Positions 32,974-34,169 are shown, numbered from the stretch's first letter. The stretch: DNA of 64,000 nt from Escherichia coli (GCF_003991155.1 NZ_CP031295.1), one strand, 5' to 3'. Notes: generated from the letters alone by a model not told the origin. A program made the numbers and translations.

Positions 32974-34169
32974 GGAAGGTGCGAACAAGTTCCTGATATG
33001 AGATCATCATGTTCATCCGGAGCGCATCCCAGAGGGACATCATGAGCCATCAACTCACCTTCGCCGATAGTGAATTCAGCACTAAGCGCCGTCAGACCCG
33101 AAAATAGATTTTCCTCTCCCGCATGGATCAGATTCTGCCATGGCAAAACATGGTGGAAGTCATCGAGCCGTTTTATCCCAAGGCGGGCAATGGCCGACGG
33201 CCCTATCCGCTGGAGACCATGCTGCGTATTCACTGCATGCAGCATTGGTACAACCTGAGCGACGGTGCCATGGAAGATGCCCTGTACGAAATCGCCTCCA
33301 TGCGCCTGTTTGCCCGATTATCCCTGGATAGCGCCCTGCCGGATCGCACCACCATCATGAATTTCCGCCACCTGCTCGAGCAGCATCAACTGGCCCGTCA
33401 ATTGTTCAAGACCATCAATCGCTGGCTGGCCGAAGCAGGCGTCATGATGACCCAAGGCACTTTGGTGGATGCCACCATCATTGAGGCACCCAGCTCTACC
33501 AAGAACAAAGAGCAGTAACGCGATCCGGAGATGCATCAGACCAAGAAAGGCAATCAGTGGCACTTTGGCATGAAGGCCCACATTGGTGTCGATGCCAAGA
33601 GTGGCCTGACCCACAGTTTGGTTACCACCGCGGCCAACGAGCATGACCTCAATCAGCTGGGTAATCTGCTGCATGGAGAGGAGCAATTTGTCTCAGGCGA
33701 TGCCGGATACCAAGGCGCGCCCCAACGCGAAGAGCTGGCCGAGGTGGATGTGGACTGGCTGATCGCCGAGCGACCCGGCAAGGTAAGAACCTTGAAACAG
33801 CACCCACGCAAGAACAAAACAGCCATCAACATCGAATACATGAAGGCGAGCATCCGGGCCAAAGTGGAACATCCGTTTCGCATCATCAAGCAGCAGTTCG
33901 GCTTCGTGAAAGCCAGATACAAGGGGTTGCTGAAAAACGATAACCAACTGGCGATGTTATTCACCCTGGCCAACCTGTTTAGGGTGGACCAAATGATACG
34001 TCAGTGGGAGAGATCTCAGTAAAAACCGGAAATAACGCCAGAAATGGCGGAAAAAATAGCCTAAATAGGCTGATTCGATGTGTTTGCGGGAAAAAAATCG
34101 GCCCAGATCCGCGAAATTTTAATCAGCGAGTCAGCTTGGGAAGAAATGACCTGCTTATTCGCACCTTCC
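32974..34169 (+). mobile_element. IS5-family element (IS5/ISKpn26-like)
   Basis: Terminal IRs GGAAGGTGCGAA...; transposase matches IS5 InsH; flanks ACAG and CTAA do not form a duplication. Confidence 0.85.
33042..34022 (+). pseudogene. IS5-family transposase with in-frame TAA
   Basis: KNKEQ*RDPEM at 33516-33518 where IS5 has CAA. Confidence 0.8.

Follow-up and report, generated by a model that had tools for sequence, protein, structure and literature searches.

A defective IS5-family insertion sequence between an integron integrase gene and an hsdR remnant in a resistance module of Escherichia coli

The element and its interrupted transposase gene

A 64,000-nucleotide stretch of Escherichia coli DNA (GCF_003991155.1, NZ_CP031295.1), hereafter the window, carries an insertion sequence (IS) of the IS5 family at 32974..34169 on the plus strand, placed between an integron integrase gene (intI) on its left and a remnant of hsdR, which belongs to a type I restriction system, on its right. 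The element is 1196 bp long, defective, and an isoform of ISKpn26 by overall identity. Its terminal inverted repeats, 16 bp each, are both intact: the left repeat, GGAAGGTGCGAACAAG, occupies 32974-32989 (+), and the right repeat, CTTATTCGCACCTTCC, at 34154-34169 (+), is a near-perfect inverse of it; both are the same as in the ISKpn26 copies L002 and L003. The repeat characteristic of the IS5 group, about 16 bp of the form GGAAGGTGCGAA(C/T)AAG, is thus present at both ends, and length and layout also agree with the group (about 1195-1196 bp, one long transposase frame, DUF772 and DDE_Tnp_1 domains).

The transposase gene (33042..34022, +) starts with an ATG at 33042, comprises 326 codons and a stop, and is collinear with the 326-amino-acid (aa) transposase of ISKpn26, yet it is a pseudogene in three pieces. 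Precomputed domain assignments place Pfam DUF772 (PF05598) on a 131-aa piece and DDE_Tnp_1 (PF01609) on a 163-aa piece. The original prediction, made from the sequence alone, described a transposase inactivated by an in-frame TAA where IS5 has CAA. This codon was confirmed as codon 159 (33516..33518, +), and ISKpn26 also reads CAA there. The frame is indeed broken, but the prediction overlooked a second lesion upstream, a TAG at codon 22 (33105..33107, +) in place of the GAG of ISKpn26 and IS5, which brings the number of premature stops to two. The uninterrupted frame of an autonomous IS is therefore lacking, and both stops recur in all carriers.

An intact transposase disguised by sequencing or assembly errors is scarcely conceivable, as the stops are replicated across records: both are shared by dozens of complete plasmids, each sequenced independently, from E. 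coli, Salmonella, Shigella and Enterobacter. Split products of the open reading frame (ORF) are called in many assemblies, and the RefSeq/PGAP annotation labels the gene as an 'IS5 family transposase, internal stop'. The feature is a pseudogenised IS that existing annotation already recognises, set in a mosaic resistance region, and it encodes no transposase today.

The tetranucleotides next to the element, ACAG (left) and CTAA (right), agree at one of four positions, so that the 4-bp YTAR duplication expected at both ends of a primary insertion is absent, just as the prediction had stated. An inverted-repeat finder extended the complementarity of the repeats outward by 2 nucleotides (AG/CT); a boundary shifted accordingly was rejected, since it does not regain a duplication. 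Neither an intact frame nor a boundary shift restoring a duplication, the two outcomes that the original prediction had named as grounds for abandoning it, was thus encountered. The CTAA at the right end (34170..34173) is a consensus IS5-family target lying within hsdR. Self-BLAST detected no second IS5-family copy in the 64-kb window, and the element is therefore not part of a composite transposon there.

A mosaic body

Across PLSDB, the element is 97.2-97.3% identical at the nucleotide level to copies annotated as ISKpn26 and about 91% identical to IS5. The choice of IS5 as comparison in the original prediction was thus correct at the level of the family, but the nearest relative is ISKpn26. 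By the ISfinder convention, isoforms share more than about 95% nucleotide identity with the reference. The element lies above this value relative to ISKpn26, though unevenly, the left part reaching 99.4% and the right part about 95%. Of the 32 differences from ISKpn26, four fall within the first 626 bp and the other 28 within the last 570 bp, a very uneven spread (Fisher p = 2.6e-6). The ISKpn26-like part (32974..33599, +) is the one that shows 99.4% identity to standard ISKpn26 copies, and the 28 differences of the divergent right part (33600-34169) span 33617..34048 (+); in approximate terms, the ISKpn26-like left extends over 640 bp and the divergent right over 550 bp.

The two parts also differ in the kind of change they carry. 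On the left, three of three coding changes are non-synonymous (the TAG stop, the TAA stop and E29D), whereas on the right 22 of the 26 changed codons are synonymous and four non-synonymous. This excess of synonymous codons argues that the right part represents a separate transposase lineage which evolved while functional, and not a product of decay. Uneven divergence together with a mostly synonymous divergent part is the pattern of a hybrid IS. The element is such a hybrid: its left portion is like ISKpn26, and its right portion stems from an IS5-family lineage that is otherwise unsampled and diverged under purifying selection. Outside the 59 copies of the right part itself, the best relative of that part in PLSDB is 95.4% identical, and local BLAST against about 100 IS5/ISKpn26 copies from IMG/VR gave the same maximum of 95.4%. 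A protein search for the parent of the right half returned best matches of 98-99%, a comparison blunted by clustering at 90%.

Compared with ISKpn26, an IS5-family element of 1196 bp found on plasmids and chromosomes of Klebsiella and other Enterobacterales, the window copy has equal length, inverted repeats and gene layout, and its right flank CTAA is a consensus target, as for ISKpn26. It differs in its two nonsense codons, in the right 570 bp with about 95% identity, in the missing target duplication and in a left flank that is not YTAR. IS5 of Escherichia coli (1195 bp) shares with it the family, the terminal repeats, the target preference and the architecture of the 326-aa transposase, but its identity is only about 91% overall and 80% over the first 107 bp, and it is a more distant relative than ISKpn26. 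A third element, 'IS-Y' of the K. pneumoniae IncC plasmid pKP5362-1 (L238), is intact, 1196 bp long and bounded by a CTAA duplication; its identity with the window copy is 89.7% over the first 107 bp and 95.3% over the right half, and it is the donor of neither part.

Junctions with intI and hsdR

The intI-like region predicted on the left proved to be a genuine, full-length integron integrase gene (31774..32745, +; 323 aa; NCBIfam TIGR02249, 446.7 bits against a cutoff of 265; Pfam Phage_integrase and SAM_4). Its 3' flank, 32746..32973, ends in ...TGCGATAGACAG at the left repeat. Three further sequences, the IncP plasmid of a Klebsiella sp. from UK wastewater (L032, NZ_CP056487.1) and the metagenome contigs L115 and L116, carry an intI about 98-99.5% identical in nucleotides to that of the window, with the same downstream flank. 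Junction alignment revealed that their left junction is 18 bp longer (...GATAGACAG-TAGTGAGGCGAGGG-CTAA|GGAAGGTGCG), the window flank being without the 18 bp TAGTGAGGCGAGGGCTAA; from this we infer that the window lineage lost 18 bp, including a CTAA, beside the left repeat. The deletion ends precisely at the tip of that repeat. The intI-side site in front of the left repeat reads GAGGCGAGGG-CTAA. The TAG stop is older than the deletion, because L032, which has the 18 bp, shares with the window copy the TAG along with 33011G.

The right end adjoins a 187-bp internal remnant of hsdR (34170..34356, minus strand), the gene for a type I restriction R subunit, which is 97.3% identical to positions 2989-3175 of L116 and annotated by PGAP as a pseudogene fragment cut at both ends. 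The hsdR of L116 is an 896-aa ORF running off the contig, and its SWI2_SNF2, T1R_D3-like, ResIII and HSDR_N domains identify it as a type I restriction R subunit. It continues without interruption across the site of the right junction (...AATCGGCAGTT-CTAA-ATCGTCGTGCC, reading CTAA-ATCGTCG). The natural left neighbour of the right-hand CTAA is thus the hsdR sequence AATCGGCAGTT, unlike the intI flank GAGGCGAGGG-CTAA. Since hsdR is uninterrupted in L116 and this left neighbour differs from the intI flank, the two ends of the IS belong to two target sites. The flanks hence come from non-adjacent sites, one of which is seen uninterrupted (L116 for the right, L032, L115 and L116 for the left junction), and even with the 18 bp restored the element would join two sites and not a single duplicated target. 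Both the 18-bp difference and the uninterrupted hsdR site support the original suggestion of a deletion or recombination breakpoint.

An ordinary single insertion whose flanks drifted by point mutation, or whose true boundary is shifted, is hardly credible in this light. The outward AG/CT extension does resemble half of a palindromic CTAG target, and the element is old enough to have gathered two stops. The left junction of the relatives, however, differs in length, by 18 bp, and not by substitutions; the empty hsdR site has a different left neighbour; and drift would require at least three changes in eight flank bases, far more than the 0.6% by which the neighbouring half of the IS has diverged. 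With the canonical boundaries, moreover, 23 out of 36 other copies show a perfect duplication.

These 36 distinct full-length IS5/ISKpn26 copies were collected from IMG/VR contigs (L117-L196). ISKpn26 insertion has been described to give a 4-bp CTAG direct repeat (PMC8023600); among the surveyed copies, the 23 perfect 4-bp duplications are all YTAR, and 13 copies have none. The left flank fits YTAR in 35 of the 36. Mismatched flanks are accordingly common in the sample, at about one third, and a non-YTAR left flank is rare (1/36). ACAG is not a normal primary junction; CTAA is. In most of the 13 non-matching copies, each flank is individually YTAR, and exchange between copies seems to be frequent for the IS5/ISKpn26 family in general.

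Exchange is also visible at this element. L006 (E. coli plasmid NZ_CP100982.1, 4001-5196) has as its left flank a fragment of an EAL-domain gene, ending in GTAA; the left part of its IS is an ISKpn26 variant without the TAG, and the right part is of the window type, with the TAA and the window right flank. It was considered as the original insertion site and rejected: with a GTAA left flank and a chimeric IS, it is a recombinant and not an ancestor. L028 (OU015719.1, 7201-8395) combines the window left flank and left IS part with a genuine IS5 right end and a right flank as in L004. In L032 the IS (5117-6310) is of the window type for the first ~130 bp and an ISKpn26 variant thereafter, with another right flank. 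A polymorphic block at IS positions 173-185, listed in PMC8023600, was seen in L006 and L032. Three independent flank swaps (L006, L028, L032) indicate that homologous recombination between IS5-family copies is active at the element.

The contigs L115 and L116 hold a different arrangement. An IS is represented at their intI-side CTAA by no more than its first 107 bp, which are fused to DNA downstream of hsdR, and in L116 this remnant lies 1,484 bp from the hsdR CTAA site. The remnant shares about 88% identity with the window copy and 98.1% with the intact pKP5362-1 element (L238). Its assignment to the lineage of the window right half was rejected, as the full-length relative L238 reaches only 95.3%.

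Taken together, these observations make it very likely that the element is a dead hybrid IS5-family IS, a fixed passenger in a resistance-plasmid module, which marks a deletion or recombination scar. As a first step, an IS5-family copy would have been located at the CTAA downstream of intI. The right side of the IS would then have been joined to the hsdR CTAA, located 1.5 kb or more away, with removal of the 3' part of hsdR, most likely by RecA-type recombination or gene conversion between IS5-family copies in the same orientation. We favour this two-copy route because exchange is documented at the locus and the hybrid could be made in the same stroke. Exchange with ISKpn26 copies would have produced the hybrid body as a third step; finally, the TAG would have arisen and, later, the 18 bp beside the left repeat, including the CTAA, would have been lost.

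Several points weigh against this reconstruction. A one-step IS-mediated adjacent deletion would give an identical product at the right junction. No contig turned up in which a second IS occupies the hsdR CTAA, and neither PLSDB nor the IMG/VR copies yielded a full-length donor of the right half. Under both routes, the different left end of the IS in L115 and L116 calls for a further conversion or for an insertion of its own. The 18-bp deletion is without microhomology, and the new flank it created, ACAG, is not a consensus target.

IS5-family transposition may also yield adjacent deletions. In such a one-step event, the right end of the copy downstream of intI would have attacked the hsdR CTAA on the same molecule, with loss of the DNA in between, and the mosaic would stem from later gene conversion by ISKpn26. 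We regard this as possible, though on balance we doubt it. It has the attraction of fewer insertion events and of a right flank, CTAA, that is a perfect consensus target; the 18-bp loss stops exactly where the left repeat begins, in keeping with a break made by transposase, and non-consensus flanks such as CCAG (L180) occur next to other copies. Its end product nevertheless equals that of two-copy recombination, so that nothing speaks specifically for it, and the hybrid body would still need a separate conversion event. Homologous exchange was directly seen three times at the locus, whereas adjacent deletion was not directly seen.

Spread, surroundings and possible source of the module

In PLSDB, the best 25 records all match the 1196 bp at 100% identity, and 57 reach at least 99%. 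The surrounding 6 kb (30500-36500) are likewise found, at a coverage of at least 80%, in 57 PLSDB records. At every carrier locus read (L001, L008-L014, L016-L027, L031 and L007), the junctions TGCGATAGACAG|IS|CTAAATCGTCGT are invariant. L007, an error-prone record, is 98.1% identical overall; together with H172 (91%) it was dropped as a candidate divergent relative, as the scattered indels of both are typical of error-prone assemblies. Some 2,400-2,500 blocks of the public assembly collection contain exactly the same proteins beside the element (IntI and a 135-aa ORF), among them plasmids of E. coli, Salmonella and Enterobacter and some chromosomes. A literature search for a published description of the block gave nothing specific.

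The copy is confined to one conserved block, with 57 copies for 57 blocks in PLSDB, and does not show the occurrence at several sites expected of a transposing element. Equal numbers of copies and blocks, together with invariant junctions, argue that the element does not move; it appears to be a fixed passenger with no sign of mobility. The element could still be non-autonomous and mobilized in trans by an ISKpn26 or IS5 transposase, given that both inverted repeats and the subterminal sequences are as in active ISKpn26 and that intact ISKpn26 and IS5 copies abound in the same hosts. We consider this quite improbable, as no copy with these stops occurs outside the conserved block in PLSDB and all junctions read are either invariant or explained by homologous exchange.

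A partial copy was noted on the ColE10 plasmid of Enterobacter kobei with mcr-4.3 (NZ_CP119532.1; L033/L034), where the ACAG|IS junction and the 3' part of intI lie next to IS26. The IS is interrupted there after about window position 33829, and two IS110-family transposase genes follow.

The module has the order sul3 or tet(M), IS256-family fragment, intI, IS, hsdR remnant, antitoxin remnants and truncated TnAs1. To the right of the IS, the sequence is a patchwork. A second breakpoint lies 187 bp from the element, where hsdR homology stops at 34356 and the next segment starts at 34361. That segment, 385 bp long (34361..34745) and not part of the IS, is 99.2% identical to the Aeromonas veronii plasmid pHD6448-1. 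The antitoxin-type remnants at 35205-35871 consist of a protein with a truncated Xre/MbcA/ParS C-terminal domain (35205..35402, minus strand; 65 aa; Pfam PF09722, 26.6 bits against a cutoff of 24.5) and the divergent 135-aa ORF, the 3' end of which resembles a gene beside a RES toxin in an Enterobacter kobei plasmid. No toxin gene, RES-type included, was found in this region (35205-35871). The toxin-antitoxin-like region announced by the original prediction is thus reduced to a truncated antitoxin; it is the hsdR remnant that adjoins the IS, and the antitoxin stands beyond at least one breakpoint (34356/34361). A 38-bp TnAs1 inverted repeat (36071-36108) closes the right-hand region.

Further repeats surround the module. 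The tnpA of TnAs1 is cut by IS26 at 37620, and three identical IS26 copies frame the region at 26806-27628, 37620-38442 and 62200-63022, the third inverted. A second Tn3-family transposase (48111-49573) is 81.7% identical to the TnAs1 part. A perfect inverted repeat of 1043 bp, consisting of an IS256-family transposase fragment and adjacent DNA, is located at 30513-31555 and 58074-59116, one copy between sul3 (29647-30438) and intI, the other between the cassette array of a class 1 integron and tet(M) (59437-61371). In other plasmids, the version present is linked either to sul3 or to tet(M), which suggests that the repeat has mediated an inversion or an exchange.

As to the source of the flanks, the intI and hsdR sides may well be of different origins, as the original prediction had suggested for the regions to the left and right of the element; in L115 and L116 they are already linked, though only through the IS remnant. 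A protein search with IntI across 100,044 species genomes gave as best match a metagenome-assembled genome of Aeromonadaceae, with 93% aa identity over the best-matching segment and 77% nucleotide identity across the gene. This genome was rejected as the native source of the left flank, because the DNA downstream of its intI is unrelated. An hsdR of the window type was found near intI at none of 80 related intI genome loci. Residue 146 of IntI (codon ~32209-32211), within the motif RL(R)VxDIDF, is Cys in the window, while of 72 relatives 71 have Arg, as does L116; the plasmid-borne Cys146 allele, widely spread, may be impaired.

Full-length relatives of hsdR are 1020 aa long, the closest being from a Logan contig (97% aa identity) and from Aeromonas veronii (93-94%). 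In L237 (4258-11245), the nearest full-length hsdR is part of an hsdM-hsdS-hsdR operon, which is followed by Hachiman genes (HamA and a DEAD/ResIII helicase). The presence of several Aeromonas-related pieces suggests that the region was put together in an Aeromonadaceae-like host and then passed to Enterobacteriaceae. In a bolder proposal, the dead IS is the footprint of the very event by which enterobacterial resistance plasmids acquired an integron-integrase region together with a type I restriction locus, both taken from an environmental host akin to Aeromonadaceae; the right half of the IS would be a relic of the donor's IS5-family element, and the IS might still be movable in trans by ISKpn26 transposase. 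We think this rather unlikely.

IS copies are found as recombination scars in resistance plasmids elsewhere too, for example in the IS26-driven and ISKpn26-associated rearrangements of PMC4471558 and PMC5142620. With such scars, the window element shares the missing target duplication, truncated flanking genes, a mosaic multiresistance region and hybrid copies formed by exchange; it differs from them in that the IS itself is dead and propagated only within its block. An old deletion or recombination scar of this kind is ordinary for such plasmids, poses no new biological question and offers little beyond bookkeeping. For that purpose, the two stops, the hybrid body and the ACAG/CTAA junctions make the element useful as a lineage marker. 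It tags a sul3- or tet(M)-linked resistance module on plasmids of E. coli, Salmonella, Shigella and Enterobacter and on some chromosomes, and allows the module and its recombinant derivatives to be traced. Even a dead IS still reshapes plasmids as a patch of homology, the only demonstrable activity of this one being the swapping of flanks with other IS5/ISKpn26 copies.
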